Source: Microgenomates bacterium OLB22
Lineage (GTDB): Bacteria; Patescibacteriota; Microgenomatia; UBA1406; HO2-37-13b
Reading direction: 5' to 3'
DNA: 64,000 nt
Assembly: GCA_001567515.1 (NCBI GenBank)
Contig: LLEV01000005.1
Location: 132,484 to 196,483 of the forward strand
Positions 932 to 42,360 of this stretch are shown piece by piece. Made by a program: the position numbers and the translations under genes. Numbering within the stretch: the first letter of the stretch is position 1; every line of letters starts with the position of its first letter. The notes beneath the pieces are model-generated. The model was not told the DNA's origin and ran no database searches. It saw nothing but the letters and a program-made list of their open reading frames with translations.

Positions 932-2138
932 TTATTCAAACCGAATTGCTTCAATAGGTGAGAGGTTGGCTGCCTTACGGGCTGGGAAGACACCAAAGGT
1001 GATACCAATGAGTGCCGAAACTCCCGTGGCAAGTAATACTGAGAAAAGAGTGATCTCAGCTGGAAAAAAAGTTGCGCATAATGAGGACAAAAAATACCTG
1101 AAATGATCAACCCACCCACTCCCCCAAGCAATGAAAGCATGACAGACTCGACTAAGAACTGTTGGAGGATATCTTGTTTAGTAGCTCCAAGCGCCCTTCG
1201 TATCCCTATCTCCTTGGTCCTTTCCACTACACTCACATACATGATATTCATGATCCCGATACCACCAACGATCAAAGAAATAGCCCCGATAACAACTAAT
1301 ACACTATTGAGCGCTGAGAAGATCGAGTTCACAGCATTGAGTATCTCTGTTTGCTCTATGACAGAAAAATCATCTTCATCATATCTCCTCCCCAACATCA
1401 TCTCGGCTTCTCTTTGAGTCTGCTTTAGCGTATCTTCGCTACGAGCCTTTATATAGATAGTGAAAAATGTTTTGTCAGGGTTGAAGGTGTAGGCAGCTGT
1501 ATATGGGATGTAAGCAAATGAATCAAAATTTGGTCCCCCAAAGCCTCCCCCTCCTATCTTTTTGAGCACTCCCATCACGCGAAACCGCTGATCATCAAGC
1601 GTGATAGTCCTACCTACCGCCTTTTCTGGAAGGGTAAAGAGAGCAGTTGCTAGCGCATTGCCGATCACTATGCTTCTAGATTTTTTTTTCAACTTCTCGA
1701 GAAGTAAATACACTTCCATACTCAGCTTCGAGATTGCGGAGAGTAAAGAGGTCGCCAGTTGTTGCAAATAGATCGGCTGTCTCGGTCTTCTCTCCAAAAC
1801 TCGCCGAGAGAGTCTTCATAAATGCAGGAGCAACCAGGCTAGCTGATCGGATCTTCTTGAGATTTTGCACATCTTGTATATCGAATTCTGCCCACCCAGG
1901 CTCCCCCTCCCGGGCTACTGCGAAAGGACCCTCCTTGCAAAACTTGACCGGGGAAGACGATCAATAAATTTGTACCAAGACTATCAAACTGTTGTTTAAT
2001 AAAGTTCTTCAATCCAACTCCTACAGCCTGCAGCAATACTACAGCGGTAATACCGATGATGATCCCCAGTGTCGTCAAAAATGTTCGGACCTTATTGCGT
2101 TTGAAGTCCAAGATCGATTCTTTGATGATATGAAACAT
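932..2138 (-). pseudogene. MacB/FtsX-type ABC transporter permease, reading frame broken at least 3 times
   Basis: Pieces: 1839..2138 (N-terminal TM), 1676..1870 (periplasmic domain), 823..1797 (FtsX motif ERTKEIGIRRALGA). I read the true C-terminus ...[20 protein letters not shown] in another frame, ending at 932. Shifts occur at A6 1089..1094 and T9 1681..1689. Confidence 0.8.
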
Positions 2139-2140
2139 AG

Positions 2141-2847
2141 TTAGTGTGTTGCTTTCTTTTTGGCGTAACCCTTAGATTTGCCTATCGTCATGACCCCATC
2201 TCTGATAGTGACACTTCGGAAGGCGCGACGAGCGACCTCCTGCTCGTGAGTCACAACAACAATTGTCTTCTTATCTTTCTTATTCAGGTTATCTAGTATC
2301 TCTAGGACAACATCACCAGACTTTGTATCAAGATTTCCTGTGGGCTCATCAGCTAGGATGACTTCAGGGTCCATGATAAGTGCGCGTGAGATAGCTGTTC
2401 GTTGTTGCTCTCCTCCTGAGATCCTATTTGGATAAGACTCCGCTCTATGCGCAAGCCCAAATCGCTCCATGAGCTCCTGTGCCCGCTGATGATAGTAGCT
2501 CTCAGGCTTGCTATCATCATATCTCCCGGGGAGCATGATATTTTCACGGATGGTCAATTTTGATATCAGGTTAAATTGCTGGAATACGAATCCTATTTTT
2601 CTGTTTCGTAGGCGAGAGAGACTTGCGTCCGAAAGCGAGATGTATCTACTCCATCAACAAGAATGTGTCCGGATGATGGTTTGTCCAGGAGACCGATCAT
2701 ATTCATAAGAGTTGACTTACCTGACCCGGATGGGCCCACGATAGATATATAATCCCCATCCTTGACCACCAGAGAGGTGGGTTGTAGGATAGTGATCGGG
2801 CTATCCCCCAATGTTACCGTCTTTGATACGTCTTTGAGCTCAATCAT
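2141..2847 (-). pseudogene. ABC transporter ATP-binding protein (MacB/LolD-like), one frameshift
   Basis: Pieces 2593..2880 (Walker A GPSGSGKST) and 2141..2557 (LSGGEQQR-like ISGGEQQR, Walker B ILADEPTGNLD). The linker ...LRNRKIGFVFQQFNLISKLTIRENIML is readable across a 1-nt shift near 2630. The likely ATG at 2847 overlaps the upstream stop. Confidence 0.85.
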
Positions 2848-3848
2848 ATACGACGTCCCCAACTGAGAGCCCTTTGACAATTTCTATCTCACTTTCGGTC
2901 TCGATACCTATGGTCACATCTTGACGTTGTTTCTTCCCCTTTACTTTCTTCCAGACAAAATCACCTTTCTCGTCAGACTGCAATGCAGTTGCTGGTATAG
3001 AGATAGCATTATTTTTTGATGACAGCACAAAACGAGCGTCTCCCGTCATCCCGAGTCTTAAGTTGTCAACAAGTTCATCCTTAGAGACCTCTATAAATAC
3101 TTCGTATACGATAGAGGTTTCTCCTACTTTAGGGGCAAAAGATATGTGATGGACCTTACCCATGAGCAATTTGTCCAAAGCATCAAGGCTTATCTCGACA
3201 GCTTGTCCCTCCTTGATCTGTACTATCTCCTTTTGGTCAGCCGTAACGACAAACCGTAAAGTATCAGGATTCACGATAGCAAAACGAGCAGATGAAGGAG
3301 TGATGTTCACTCCCGCGATAGGTGACTCAACAAATGTCACGATCCCATTGATCGGACTCACTAGTCGAGAAAACTCAAGGCTCAAGGAAGTAAGCTCAAC
3401 ATCTAATACTGAGCTATCTAATGTAAATTGTGTCTTATCGAGTGCTCTCTGAAGAGCGTCGGTGATAGCCTTTCCCTCCTGGTCATCCTTCTGTTGCTCT
3501 AGATCCCAGCGTGATGACTTGTAATCATTGAGGTCTTTTTGAAGTCTCTTTTTGAGCTCTCGAGAGTCTAGCTGAGCGATAAGCTGCCCTTTCTTGACCA
3601 AGTCTCCATCTTTTACGGCTATATAGGATAGTCGGCCTGAAGTCTGGAACTGGAGTGTGACTTTTTCTGTTGCGTCTATATTACCTGCGAGGACAAGCTC
3701 TTCTTGAAGAGTGCCCTCTTTTACATCATGTGTTTTTTTCTGCCCTTGAGGCAGCGTCCGTACTTCTTTGATTATAGATATAGCCTCCGGTGGCAATAGC
3801 TGTAAGCGCGACAAGGCCAACCAGAAGAGATTTCTTTTTTAACTTCAT
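2840..3848 (-). pseudogene. HlyD/MacA-type periplasmic adaptor (efflux membrane-fusion protein), one frameshift
   Basis: ORF 2840..3820 has adaptor-like sequence. The signal/TM N-terminus MKLKKKSLLVGLVALTAIATGG starts at ATG 3846..3848 in another frame. The frames join at T7 3733..3739. Confidence 0.8.
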
Positions 3849-39549: not shown

Positions 39550-40129
39550 TCAAGCAAACACCTCTTCAAGTATTTCTGCATTGCGGAAGAGGATAGTCCT
39601 ATTTGTTGTAAAGGTAAGGCCCTTATTTGGACTCATCTCAAATCCCAGGTAAATCACCTCGACTTCTCGAGACCGCACTTCTTTGATAGCTGGCTGGAGG
39701 TCCGAATCAGAGCTGCATAGGATAGCCCTCTTTAGCTTTTTGTCACAAGCGAGAGACACGAGATCTACCGCTATCCGCACATCAACTCCTTTTTCTCTGA
39801 AGATCACTTTTTTTTCCAACTACCTGTCCTCGGACATTACCGGACATGACGAATTCATAACCTTGAGAAACAAGACTATTGCGCAGCTTTCGCTGAAATT
39901 TGATGAGGTCTGCCGATTTTTCCTTGGTATCCTCATGCTTGTGGAGTTTTGCTGCATAAAAAATCTTTCGATGTAGATGGAGTCCTTTGAGGGGTTTCTC
40001 AAAAAGAGCATTGAAATCTAGTGAAGCGAGATCGATCGCCTTTTGTTTCGTCTTCTTACTTTCCTTTAAGACCGCTTCAAGTTTATGCATGAAATTTTCA
40101 CCATCTATGAAGAGAACAGTTTGGGACAT
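39550..40129 (-). pseudogene. NYN-domain (LabA-like) putative RNase, frameshift in T8 run
   Basis: Pieces 39782..40129 (VLFIDGENF) and 39550..39819 (EKGVDVRIAVD...SSDSDLQPA). The frames join at 39808..39815. Confidence 0.7.
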
Positions 40130-40144
40130 GGCTCATTGTACAAC

Positions 40145-40180
40145 AAAAAAACCTCAGCGGGCTTTCGCACGAGCTGAGGC
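40145..40180 (-). terminator. intrinsic terminator of the sortase/GT2 operon
   Basis: Minus strand: CCTCAGC-loop-GCTGAGG followed by T7. Confidence 0.75.
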
Positions 40181-40225
40181 GTTGATGAGTTAATTATAGG
40201 TAGTAACAGAAAGGAAGTCAATGTT

Positions 40226-41491
40226 TTATGCAATACTTGCCTCTACCCTGCGTTCTACGTGTGTCCATGTGCAGATCTGCTGGGCAATACTATTTCTGAG
40301 TGTAGGAAGTAGAACAAGTGACTTGATGAGAGCATAATACTCAACATAACTGAGTATGTAAAAGAAAAAGTACATGCTTGGAACAAATGGCATTAGTACG
40401 AGCTTCTCACGCAGACTCATGGTCGTCTCCATGAGAACGTTGAGTGATAAATAACTAACCATGACAAGGATGGCCGAAAGCAGCGTAACCAAGTCTCCGT
40501 AGGCTACTATAATGTAGGCGATGTACCCGATCATCAATGGTTCTAGAAAGAATGCCACATCACTGAAAATCGCGTAAGGCAGGTAGAGATAAGTCAAGGC
40601 TTTTCCAAAGCGGTTATGAGAATTGAAAAAAAGATTTCGATTCTTGTAAAACGTCTGAGACCTCCCCCACTTCCATCGAAAACGCTGTTTCATGAGATCT
40701 TTTATGCTCAGTACACTTTCGGTATAGGATGTTACATCAGCGCCATAGATGACACGATGTTTTTTGTTTCCTAGCTGAAGGATCTTCATAGTAAGGTCGA
40801 TGTCCTCTGTGATGGTGTCGCCATCATAGTATCCGATCTTCTTTATCACATCACGTCTGAAGGTCGATCCAATGCCCCCGATGATGTACTCAATGTTGAA
40901 AAGTGACTGAGCCCGCTTCATCTGGTAACACACGAGGTACTCAAACCGTTGTATCAAGTTCAATAGTGTGCCTGTCGGGATTATCCGGACATTTGAGGCC
41001 AATGCAACGACTTTTTCGTCACGGAAGTAGCGAGCTGCATTTCTGAGGGCATCAGGGGCGATGTAAGAGTCACCATCCAAACACATGACGAGCTTACCCA
41101 CAGCATGCTTATGGAGCCCGTTGTTGAGAGCTTTAGCCTTACCTTGATTCTTTTGAAAAACTAATGTCAGATTTTTTGCTTTGTGTTCCTTCTTATATGC
41201 GGTAAGAATGGCTCGTGAATTGTCTGTTGAACCATCATCAACGACCACAACCTTGAGCTTATCCATAGGATAGTCACTATCCAGTACCGACTGCACTGCT
41301 CGTAGGATACTGTTTTGCTCATTGTGAGCTGGTATCACGACGGTAAAAAAGGGCAAAGAGCCTTTCTTGGAAGCTTTTTTCTTCTCTGTTGAGGTCTTGA
41401 GGTCGTAGATATCGGACCCAATGAGAAAAAGACCCATGCGAATCAGGTTGATTGTTCCAAAAAAAATGATGAGATAGGCGATTAGTTCCAT
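40226..41491 (-). CDS. processive family-2 glycosyltransferase (PgaC/IcaA/cellulose-synthase-like)
   Basis: 421 aa. N-terminal TM, VVIPAHNE, VVDDGSTD, LDGDS, TEDIDLT, QRFRW (QxxRW), C-terminal TM bundle. Confidence 0.85.
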   Translation of the reverse strand: MELIAYLIIFFGTINLIRMGLFLIGSDIYDLKTSTEKKKASKKGSLPFFTVVIPAHNEQNSILRAVQSVLDSDYPMDKLKVVVVDDGSTDNSRAILTAYKKEHKAKNLTLVFQKNQGKAKALNNGLHKHAVGKLVMCLDGDSYIAPDALRNAARYFRDEKVVALASNVRIIPTGTLLNLIQRFEYLVCYQMKRAQSLFNIEYIIGGIGSTFRRDVIKKIGYYDGDTITEDIDLTMKILQLGNKKHRVIYGADVTSYTESVLSIKDLMKQRFRWKWGRSQTFYKNRNLFFNSHNRFGKALTYLYLPYAIFSDVAFFLEPLMIGYIAYIIVAYGDLVTLLSAILVMVSYLSLNVLMETTMSLREKLVLMPFVPSMYFFFYILSYVEYYALIKSLVLLPTLRNSIAQQICTWTHVERRVEASIA

Positions 41492-41493
41492 AA

Positions 41494-42042
41494 TTAGTTT
41501 GTTGTAATGAGTTTTAGATGCACTAATAGACGTGCGTTGTTATGAGGTCCTGTACAGGTGATCAGCGTGAGCTGAGGCCTTCCGTCATTGCGGAATACCG
41601 TAACATGCGTGGGAGAGACTTTTTCTTGTGACAGGTAGCCATAGGTAAAACGTCTTCCGTCTTGCGTAGTGAGTACTACAATGTCACCTGTATTGAGCTT
41701 ATGTATCTTTCCAAAGAGATCTGTTGTATTGTGAGCATAAATGACAGTGGTGCCCTTTTTTGTATTGGGAGCAACTGAAAGGGAGGCAAAATGAGCAGCA
41801 TCTTGAGTGATGAGCCATGAGTCTTTACTTAGGTCATAGGTACCTGGCTTTACCGGCTTTTGGACCCCAATTTGGGGCACCATGATTTGTACAGGAGCAT
41901 CGATGCTCTGTCTTTGTTGCAACGAGAATAGAGTGCTTTCTGCGCTTTTTATACGCACAAAATAGGCCGTCGCGATGCTCAAAATGAGCACATTAGCAAC
42001 AAATACAGCACAAACTGCTGGAAAAGACATTTTCATATGCAC
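41494..42042 (-). CDS. sortase-family transpeptidase
   Basis: 182 aa. N-terminal TM, His in VIYAHN, catalytic TLITC, and a distal Arg candidate. Confidence 0.8.
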   Translation of the reverse strand: MHMKMSFPAVCAVFVANVLILSIATAYFVRIKSAESTLFSLQQRQSIDAPVQIMVPQIGVQKPVKPGTYDLSKDSWLITQDAAHFASLSVAPNTKKGTTVIYAHNTTDLFGKIHKLNTGDIVVLTTQDGRRFTYGYLSQEKVSPTHVTVFRNDGRPQLTLITCTGPHNNARLLVHLKLITTN

Positions 42043-42047
42043 TGAGG

Positions 42048-42230
42048 TTAGCGGATAGCCCTGAGTATACGGGTCACTATAAAGGTGAGCACAACAGCAG
42101 CGCCGACAATCATAGCGACAATAGGTAGTATCTGGCTGATCATGTTAGTTCCGGTATTAGGCAACGAAGCCACTCCTGCAGCGAAGGTTGCAGCTCCGAG
42201 TACTTGACCTGAAGTTCCGTTGAGGGACAT
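42048..42230 (-). CDS. 60-aa protein consisting almost only of an LPXTG cell-wall sorting signal
   Basis: LPNTG at aa 23-27, TM at aa 31-53, tail RILRAIR. An in-frame TAG lies 9 nt upstream of the ATG, so the ORF is complete. It sits 6 nt upstream of the sortase gene. Confidence 0.55.
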   Translation of the reverse strand: MSLNGTSGQVLGAATFAAGVASLPNTGTNMISQILPIVAMIVGAAVVLTFIVTRILRAIR

Positions 42231-42360
42231 AGATAAACTAAGAATAACTATTTTAACAGATTGAAGTATATCACATGTAGTCTTATAAGTAAATACTATA
42301 TGTACTTAATCTTCTTTCAGCTGAGCATCAAAGAATGCAACAGATCTACGCATAGCGATA

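Follow-up and report, generated by a model that had tools for sequence, protein, structure and literature searches.

The window analyzed here is a stretch of 64,000 nucleotides from Microgenomates bacterium OLB22, a member of the uncultured, small-genome Candidate Phyla Radiation (CPR, or Patescibacteria). It carries a minus-strand operon that encodes a 60-residue protein consisting of a cell-wall sorting signal with 22 residues in front of it, a sortase and a family 2 glycosyltransferase (GT2) of the processive type. Sortases are usually seen as enzymes that display large proteins. The dedicated sortase of this operon has, as its sole evident operon-encoded target, a passenger-less peptide tied to a polysaccharide synthase. 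Gene linkage across related loci indicates that the primary tie of the small protein is with the GT2 and not with the sortase, and the co-occurrence of motif and enzyme points to its being a true substrate of the sortase wherever one is supplied. We tentatively favor an explanation in which the small protein would be a subunit of the synthase that is processed by the sortase. The CPR microproteins have no curated family in the libraries searched, and the literature search found no description of the microprotein-GT2 module or of the full microprotein-sortase-GT2 module.

The operon and its recurrence in other genomes

The three genes are open reading frames (ORFs) on the minus strand at 42048..42230 (60 residues plus stop), 41494..42042 (sortase) and 40226..41491 (GT2, 421 residues). 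They are separated by 5 nt and then 2 nt, as the preliminary description of this DNA had stated, the first gap being counted with the GTG start of the sortase, from which that ORF runs to 182 residues (the annotation gives 178 residues from an ATG). The operon is closed by the strong intrinsic terminator already noted there (40144..40180, minus strand), with a G+C-rich stem of 8 bp (CCUCAGCU.../...GCUGAGG) ahead of U7 and a minimum free energy of -16.2 kcal/mol (z = -2.4); a simple terminator scan missed it because its loop is long. Ahead of the operon, a promoter-like site (42265..42293, minus strand) combines TTTACT, a 17-nt spacer and the TG-extended TATACT -10 box that had also been reported. 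This site is a consensus match only (9/12), and it is weak evidence alone because a promoter scan of the region gave 3 such sites against 5.1 expected from shuffles. An RNA beginning just past it would have a leader of ~28 nt before the ATG at 42230.

The 60-residue ORF had been described as having an in-frame stop 9 nt before its ATG. This is wrong, the stop lying 25 codons (75 nt) upstream, but the conclusion that the ORF is not truncated survives because no ATG, GTG or TTG occurs between the stop and the ATG, the -10 box falls within this stretch and the orthologues begin at the same position.

Word-indexed protein searches with the small protein, and likewise with the sortase, returned only the proteins themselves, so relatives were reached via the GT2, a HMMER scan for the sortase and the genomic context. 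The GT2 has more than 1,200 relatives in Patescibacteria at 50-75% identity, and the first contigs examined show an ORF of 61-64 residues with the same architecture upstream of the GT2. The full locus set comprises 79 loci from a scan of species-representative genomes together with contig loci, 81 non-redundant loci in all. An automatic filter identified an upstream ORF of 35-84 residues (mode 60) with a C-terminal transmembrane (TM) helix and a basic tail in 69 of the 81 loci, and such an ORF is visible by eye in 4 further loci; most of the remaining loci are cut at a contig end or contain only a partial GT2 match. Recurrence of the three-gene arrangement in related genomes was looked for and found across many loci. 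The same arrangement and the same small-protein architecture appear in dozens of independent loci, which places the arrangement beyond chance, and the operon of sorting-signal-only protein, sortase and processive-type GT2 that the preliminary description proposed is real.

The small ORF behaves as a gene throughout this set. Its length stays at 35-84 residues across ~70 distinct sequences, and the ratio of nonsynonymous to synonymous substitution rates (dN/dS) is 0.07-0.34 for the pairs with a computable dS, many pairs being saturated. A long surface protein ending in the 60-residue sequence was found in none of the orthologous loci.

The small ORF precedes the GT2 in essentially every complete locus, with or without a sortase, which makes the GT2 its constant partner and makes the functional tie between the two, raised as a possibility in the preliminary description, a strong one. 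In 23 non-redundant loci the sortase gene is flanked by the small ORF and the GT2. An upstream small ORF also accompanies the GT2 in 46 loci with no adjacent sortase, a sortase being scored as absent when none lies within ~4 kb of the locus (it may be present elsewhere in the genome), and in ~30 loci with no LPXTG. The motif follows the enzyme: LPxT[G/S/A/N/H] is found in the small ORF of 23/23 loci with an adjacent sortase versus 13/46 without one (Fisher p = 2e-9, computed on non-redundant loci with phylogeny ignored). A rough GT2 tree has the combination of sortase and motif scattered over Microgenomates, WWE3, Saccharibacteria and Nomurabacteria, with motif-less forms in at least four clades. 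Where the sortase is missing, visibly decayed motifs occur in sister lineages of sortase-bearing loci (LANTG, LAHSG, LPTITG and LPIATG) and in lactobacilli (LPQLG and LPQVG).

A search seeded with a five-sequence sortase alignment recovered the closest sortase relatives in the same trio and more distant ones with no GT2 nearby. A second gene order, in which the small protein (with LPATA) is followed by the GT2 and then the sortase, is found on JGI metagenome contigs (L091-L093, ~1285-3450), where the three genes remain linked despite the rearrangement. In Lactobacillales the pair of small protein and GT2 stands alone among unrelated genes with no sortase nearby, and the motif is LPQTG, LPRTG or LPETG, which are the usual motifs of Lactobacillales housekeeping sortases.

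Overall, the pair occurs in Microgenomates, WWE3, Daviesbacteria, Roizmanbacteria, Doudnabacteria, Saccharibacteria, Nomurabacteria and Lactobacillales, and also on dairy Lactococcus and Lacticaseibacillus plasmids. No Pfam or NCBIfam family covers the CPR small proteins; a match of the small protein to Phage_coatGP8 is sub-threshold (19.9 versus 24.6 bits) and was set aside as mere TM-helix similarity. The family is largely invisible in protein databases because its ORFs are short and sometimes miscalled. At locus L004 (4205-4489), for example, the source gene caller has a 63-residue ORF on the opposite strand in place of the conserved small ORF. Called orthologues of the small protein do exist, yet the word-indexed search missed them, and such short ORFs are seemingly under-represented or difficult to retrieve. 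Some loci (L036, L039, L051 and several 'Gammaproteobacteria' or 'Bdellovibrionales' entries) come from metagenome-assembled genomes labeled as non-CPR (Thermomicrobiales, Dormiibacterota, Actinomycetota or Gammaproteobacteria). Their GT2 and small proteins cluster with Patescibacteria, and mislabeling or misbinning is likely.

Features of the three proteins

The 60-residue product, a small membrane protein whose ORF is conserved in the orthologous loci, reads MSLNGTSGQVLGAATFAAGVAS-LPNTG-TN-(23-residue TM segment)-RILRAIR. As the preliminary description had seen, only 22 residues stand in front of a complete cell-wall sorting signal. The N-terminal part (residues 1-22; 42165..42230, minus strand) is uncharged, rich in G, A, S, T and V, and contains a GQVLGA element. 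The LPXTG-type pentapeptide LPNTG (residues 23-27; 42150..42164, minus strand) is read directly in the sequence. It is followed by a TM helix (residues 31-53) with a mean hydropathy of 2.84 over 19 residues and by the positively charged tail RILRAIR (residues 54-60), which together (42051..42140, minus strand) form the signature of the family. The protein has neither a Sec signal peptide nor a passenger, as there are just 22 residues before the motif, with no basic n-region and no charge; its export would be by tail insertion.

A family alignment was built from 40 LPxT-bearing members aligned on the motif. The N-terminal part spans 17-46 residues in these members (mode 23), with G, A, S, T and V making up 76% of residues and charged residues 2%. 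Lysine occurs in this part in 5/40 members and is missing from the peptide of the window, and a glycine is found at position -4 from the motif in 35/40. Within the TM helix and tail, I+17, G+20, V+23, L+24, S+26 and R+31 are conserved, and these six positions equal in conservation anything beyond the motif. The preliminary description had looked to the 22-residue N-terminal part for conservation. Its composition and Gly -4 are indeed kept, but the conserved signature is the TM helix with its tail.

This signature is shared between forms with and without the LPxTG motif, whose TM helices and tails are homologous. A hidden Markov model (HMM) of the post-LPxTG part alone, run against 12,584 ORFs, ranks the motif-less upstream ORFs right after the training family, with E-values of 1e-7 to 0.04 for the motif-less partners and of 0.1 for the first unrelated ORF. 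Because the model recovers these ORFs, the membrane helix is regarded as a family signature and not as a generic anchor. The TM helix and tail would be the part that stays in the membrane after the predicted cleavage. A single-pass topology with the N-terminus outside and the basic tail inside is favored because the first segment is just moderately hydrophobic: its best 19-residue hydropathy is ~1.0-1.5, versus ~2.6 for the TM helix, and is below the usual TM threshold in all classes. A single-sequence AlphaFold2 (AF2) model of the protein, which is weak evidence, has helices at residues 6-21 and 28-59 with a break at LPNTG. A two-TM hairpin in the motif-less forms was considered and dropped, the medians of first-segment hydropathy being alike (1.43 versus 1.55).

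Four large sorting-signal proteins at CPR loci (L014, L034, L076 and L077) likewise carry GQVLGA immediately ahead of LPXTG, and for this reason the element looks like a piece of an extended sorting signal in CPR rather than a passenger. The small proteins of Doudnabacteria-like loci (L014, L024, L030, L035 and L077) are longer, at 71-84 residues; their N-terminus is poly-Ser, and LP(I/V/R)TG is preceded by two or three xxVLGAxx units in tandem. At L014 and L077, an LPRTG protein of 585-972 residues with the same VLG units adjoins on the opposite strand.

The middle gene (41494..42042, minus strand) encodes the dedicated sortase, which has a predicted N-terminal membrane anchor and an extracytoplasmic catalytic domain. 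Its earlier identification as a sortase holds: it matches PF04203 with 76.7 bits (cut-off 26.6, E 1.7e-21), and His104, Cys163 (in LITC) and Arg171 are invariant in 20 relatives. It also scores 43.8 bits against TIGR01076, above the cut-off of 39.35. By the NCBIfam models it fits none of classes A-F, the best being class C (41.5 versus a cut-off of 160), with class F at 37.8 versus 166 and class E at 34.1 versus 160. Wall anchoring of the peptide would follow from ordinary sortase chemistry.

The third gene (40226..41491, minus strand) encodes a membrane-embedded synthase of the processive type that matches the Pfam GT2 families. D85/D86, D139xD141, E229-D230 and Q269-R-F-R-W273 are invariant across 15 homologues and represent the D, DxD, (T)ED and QxxRW motifs of processive GT2 enzymes. 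The QRFRW motif (residues 269-273; 40673..40687, minus strand) lies in an interface helix (residues 263-283) of the AF2 model of the enzyme, which has a predicted local distance difference test score (pLDDT) of 78 and a predicted template modeling score (pTM) of 0.79. The model shows a GT-A domain and four TM helices around interface helices, from which a channel and processivity are predicted. In a Foldseek comparison the whole model, membrane part included, matches hyaluronan synthases (TM-score 0.64-0.71), and the next structural matches are a minimal archaeal mannosyltransferase and then BcsA. The best NCBIfam matches are PgaC_IcaA (TIGR03937, 163.4 bits) and the XrtG-associated TIGR03111 (133.6 bits). 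The D,D,D,QRFRW signature that had led to a comparison with PgaC and IcaA is therefore present, but strict membership in that family is not, at 163 bits versus a cut-off of 422. No deacetylase of the PgaB/IcaB kind was found in the operon or its flanks.

Longer GT2 homologues were considered as natural fusions of small protein and GT2, and this was rejected because they carry C-terminal extensions and not N-terminal fusions. Four of the homologues (P0082, P0092, P0102 and P0107) have an extra C-terminal TM helix and a LysM domain, recorded as PF01476 for P0092. LysM domains bind peptidoglycan or N-acetylglucosamine (GlcNAc) polymers. The sugar polymerized by the GT2 is most likely of the GlcNAc type.

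Two observations concern neighboring genes. Just past the terminator, an NYN-like gene (39550..40129, minus strand) looks split into two overlapping ORFs, one at 39782..40129 (115 residues, no Pfam match) and one at 39550..39819 (89 residues) that matches positions 72-129 of PF01936; a frameshift, a pseudogene or an assembly error could account for the split. At L005 (2993-4087), and also at L006 and L009, the gene immediately upstream of the small ORF is divergent and encodes a membrane protein of the GT-C type (PF04188, Mannosyl_trans2).

Proposed function and its alternatives

In the explanation that we favor, the GT2 would be a hyaluronan-synthase/PgaC-like enzyme that polymerizes a sugar and exports the polymer via its own membrane channel, and the 60-residue protein would be its obligate small membrane partner, as IcaD and PgaD are for IcaA and PgaC. 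The small protein is taken as a synthase partner because the GT2 model has four TM helices and synthases of poly-N-acetylglucosamine need a small partner; PgaD and IcaD, which are small, non-homologous membrane proteins, are needed for full activity of PgaC and IcaA (PMC7112194). The window protein would insert so that its uncharged N-terminal tail of 22 residues faces outward and its basic tail inward, and its conserved TM helix would pack on the four-helix membrane part of the synthase. The sortase would then cut between T26 and G27, hold the 26-residue peptide as a thioester and pass it to an amine of a wall precursor. A 34-residue membrane peptide would remain, with a make-up like that of the shortest natural motif-less partner (L034, 35 residues). 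Sortase processing would thereby turn a pro-form into the mature synthase subunit and add a small hydrophobic peptide to the wall. The LPNT/G cut could serve the maturation of the subunit or the provision of a peptide adaptor that anchors the polymer. This model of a subunit with processing builds on conservation, gene linkage, catalytic residues, the match of motif and sortase, the homology of the TM helices and the fold of the synthase. From these it would predict the topology, the docking, the cleavage, the fate of the N-terminal peptide and the effect on synthase activity. We consider it the best single account, with a chance of being right that falls a little short of even.

Several points weigh against it. 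The docking of the small protein onto the synthase is presumed by the model, which also offers no benefit for cleaving the subunit. It makes the transferred peptide a by-product, and the keeping of a sortase in a very small genome suggests that this peptide itself matters. Gly -4, GQVLGA and the absence of charge would be superfluous in a disposable pro-peptide unless they serve recognition by the sortase. The target of the exosortase XrtG, from a related system compared below, has 220 residues and a real domain, which fits a model of an attached target over one of a pure subunit. In addition, the loci counted as having no sortase were scored within ~4 kb and not over the whole genome, and the Fisher test of motif and sortase takes no account of phylogeny.

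The most serious alternative, though an unlikely one, is that the small protein is a peptide adaptor or primer, such that the GT2 polymer is built on or joined to its Ser/Thr/Gly-rich N-terminal peptide and the sortase anchors the resulting glycopeptide to peptidoglycan. The microprotein would then be a covalent linker, and where the sortase has been lost the polymer would be tethered to the membrane via the TM helix or released. On this view each gene has a necessary role and the sortase performs its canonical one. The N-terminal part is rich in S, T and G and near-free of charged or bulky residues, which would suit a narrow glycan channel or O-glycosylation, and the several GT2 homologues with a C-terminal LysM domain point to a context of wall or GlcNAc polymer. 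Actinomyces oris GspA is reportedly a sortase substrate that is glycosylated before anchoring.

Plasmids of lactic acid bacteria add to this case. L. paracasei pLP5401 (L110, 1633-4749) and L. cremoris pJM1E (L111, 2202-5325) carry microprotein, GT2 and a TIGR03766-type gene as a unit, so that the second XrtG-associated glycosyltransferase, a large polytopic membrane enzyme, follows the pair. The TIGR03766 score is 617 bits for pLP5401, above the cut-off of 500, and 461 for pJM1E, below it. The microproteins of these plasmids have 54-57 residues and LPQAG or LPETG, and the RefSeq labels on the genes are hypothetical protein, glycosyltransferase and integral membrane protein. The XrtG operon, too, encodes a sorting-signal protein, a sorting enzyme and the same two glycosyltransferases together. 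A Bacillus mycoides plasmid match was discarded as a different, very large glycosyltransferase.

On the other side, we know of no hyaluronan-synthase- or PgaC-type synthase that takes a peptide acceptor, and hyaluronan synthase primes on GlcNAc according to the title of PDB 7sp9. Conservation in the family is highest in the TM helix and not at any Ser or Thr. The N-terminal part is down to ~8 residues in some sortase-less lineages (L034), and no TIGR03766 homologue lies within ~4 kb in the CPR loci, nor is there one in the window. The specific proposal that the sortase anchors polysaccharide, with the 22-residue peptide acting as covalent acceptor or carrier of the GT2 polymer and being ligated to peptidoglycan, is judged doubtful.

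It is improbable that the operon serves to build a coat of wall-anchored micro-peptides, in which many 26-residue hydrophobic peptides would alter surface hydrophobicity or adhesion and the GT2 would merely be co-regulated. The constrained, hydrophobic and uncharged composition of the N-terminal part, its conserved Gly -4 and the retention of a dedicated sortase would all suit such a coat, and the long chaplins of Streptomyces, which are sortase-anchored, provide a precedent for small hydrophobic wall peptides. Left unaccounted for are the persistence of the small ORF beside the GT2 after loss of motif and sortase, the TM helix as the conserved signature, and the travel of the pair alone between unrelated gene neighborhoods and on plasmids.

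The preliminary description had also raised a decoy or regulator of the sortase, a bare sorting signal that competes with surface proteins or titrates the enzyme. The lack of a passenger domain and a VLG-plus-LPXTG signal shared with large CPR surface proteins would allow this. We nevertheless judge it very improbable because the sortase is a dedicated and dispensable element and the GT2 is the constant partner; the clade of adjacent sortases is limited to the trio, with more distant sortases elsewhere, and the Lactobacillales pair has no sortase nearby. There is hardly more to recommend another kind of small-peptide product, be it a pilus-like polymer, a sortase-cyclized or secreted peptide, or a glycocin-type bacteriocin. 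Small peptide genes do adjoin a GT2 in glycocin loci, and sortases can polymerize or cyclize peptides. A sortase-assembled pilus was rejected on the missing lysine, which is absent from the N-terminal part in 35/40 members including that of the window, and on the class C score of 41.5 bits versus the cut-off of 160. As for a glycocin, the GT2 is a polytopic membrane synthase with QRFRW and a hyaluronan-synthase-like fold and not a soluble peptide glycosyltransferase, the peptide has neither a leader nor a Cys, and no transporter or immunity gene lies nearby. Finally, a remnant or untranslated ORF, left as the 3' end of a decayed surface-protein gene, has in its favor only the small size of the ORF and the gene callers that at times miss it or call the opposite strand (L004), and it can be rejected as next to impossible because long orthologues are absent from all of the loci, the ORF is under purifying selection with conserved length and start position, and it stands upstream of the GT2 in 69 plus 4 of 81 loci.

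The processed-subunit model would make the small protein a candidate new family of small subunits for synthase-type GT2 enzymes. The module is widespread in Patescibacteria, whose envelopes and host attachment are poorly understood. It can also be tested directly, since lactic acid bacteria that are cultured and genetically tractable carry a version with no sortase or with a housekeeping sortase, as do small dairy plasmids (pLP5401, 9.8 kb). If the sortase does anchor polysaccharide, the operon would represent a synthase-dependent, peptide-linked route from exopolysaccharide to wall, parallel to LCP-mediated attachment, and would suggest a purpose for the links of XrtG and PEP-CTERM systems to polysaccharide loci.

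Comparison with known systems

The window operon shares with canonical LPXTG anchoring an LPXTG motif, a hydrophobic segment, a positive tail and a sortase with intact His, Cys and Arg, as well as a motif that co-varies with sortase presence and host preference. Unlike canonical substrates, the window protein has no Sec signal peptide or passenger and has a specifically conserved TM helix. The smallest curated sortase substrates met with, those of the EF2685/EF0750 family (a 105-position profile), are larger, and the sortase, unlike canonical ones, fits no class A-F among the NCBIfam models.

The class I hyaluronan synthases of Chlorella virus and Xenopus (HAS1) are the best structural matches of the GT2 in both catalytic and membrane parts. 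They differ from it in sequence (15-19% identity) and in chain length (488-527 versus 421 residues), the GT2 model having four TM helices. IcaA/IcaD and PgaC/PgaD resemble the window pair in having a GT2 of ~410-440 residues that has few TM helices and carries D, DxD, ED and QxxRW, and a small integral membrane protein adjacent to the synthase. The window GT2 is set apart from IcaA and PgaC by its score (163.4 bits versus the equivalog cut-off of 422.3) and by an operon with no deacetylase or export genes. Its small partner, in contrast to IcaD and PgaD, is encoded upstream, apparently has one TM helix, shows no similarity to a curated family and bears a sortase motif.

In the PEP-CTERM/exosortase system, too, polysaccharide production is genetically linked to a C-terminal sorting signal and the enzyme that processes it (PMC1569441). 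This system is unlike the window operon in enzyme family, signal and envelope type, and it usually has many targets as opposed to one tiny target.

Of the known systems, the XrtG (exosortase G) system of Firmicutes is the closest. It was defined bioinformatically; the sole XrtG paper found reports transcript levels in L. plantarum and no functional test (PMC12854382). On the L. lactis plasmid pBV60 (L113, 183-6461), the gene order is Firmicu-CTERM protein, XrtG, TIGR03111 GT2, QueD-like protein and TIGR03766 glycosyltransferase. Genes for a diguanylate cyclase and an EAL-domain protein immediately precede the system on this conjugative plasmid, which hints at control by cyclic di-GMP.

The two systems differ in their sorting enzyme, which is a polytopic exosortase in one and a sortase, an extracytoplasmic Cys transpeptidase, in the other. 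By Pfam no exosortase is found in the window trio, and the small proteins have no match to the Firmicu-CTERM HMM. The XrtG target has 220 residues and a passenger domain versus 60 residues and no passenger in the window, and no QueD-like or TIGR03766 gene was found in the CPR operons. The systems agree in the order of sorting-signal protein, sorting enzyme and homologous GT2. The target on pBV60 ends in ...ITGGSTGG, a TM helix and KSKKNK, an ending built like that of the window protein from a short motif, TM helix and basic tail. Over 386 residues the window GT2 shares 27% identity with the pBV60 TIGR03111 protein (E 3e-35), and its second-best NCBIfam match is TIGR03111, with a score of 133.6 versus a cut-off of 363.95 that marks it as homologous and not as a member. 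These likenesses in sequence and gene order indicate that the window module is the sortase counterpart of the exosortase-GT2 system, and as such it offers a second entry to the question of why protein-sorting enzymes are coupled with exopolysaccharide synthesis. The module combines three known kinds of arrangement, namely sorting by a sortase, a small subunit of a synthase, and the coupling of a sorting enzyme to a polysaccharide.

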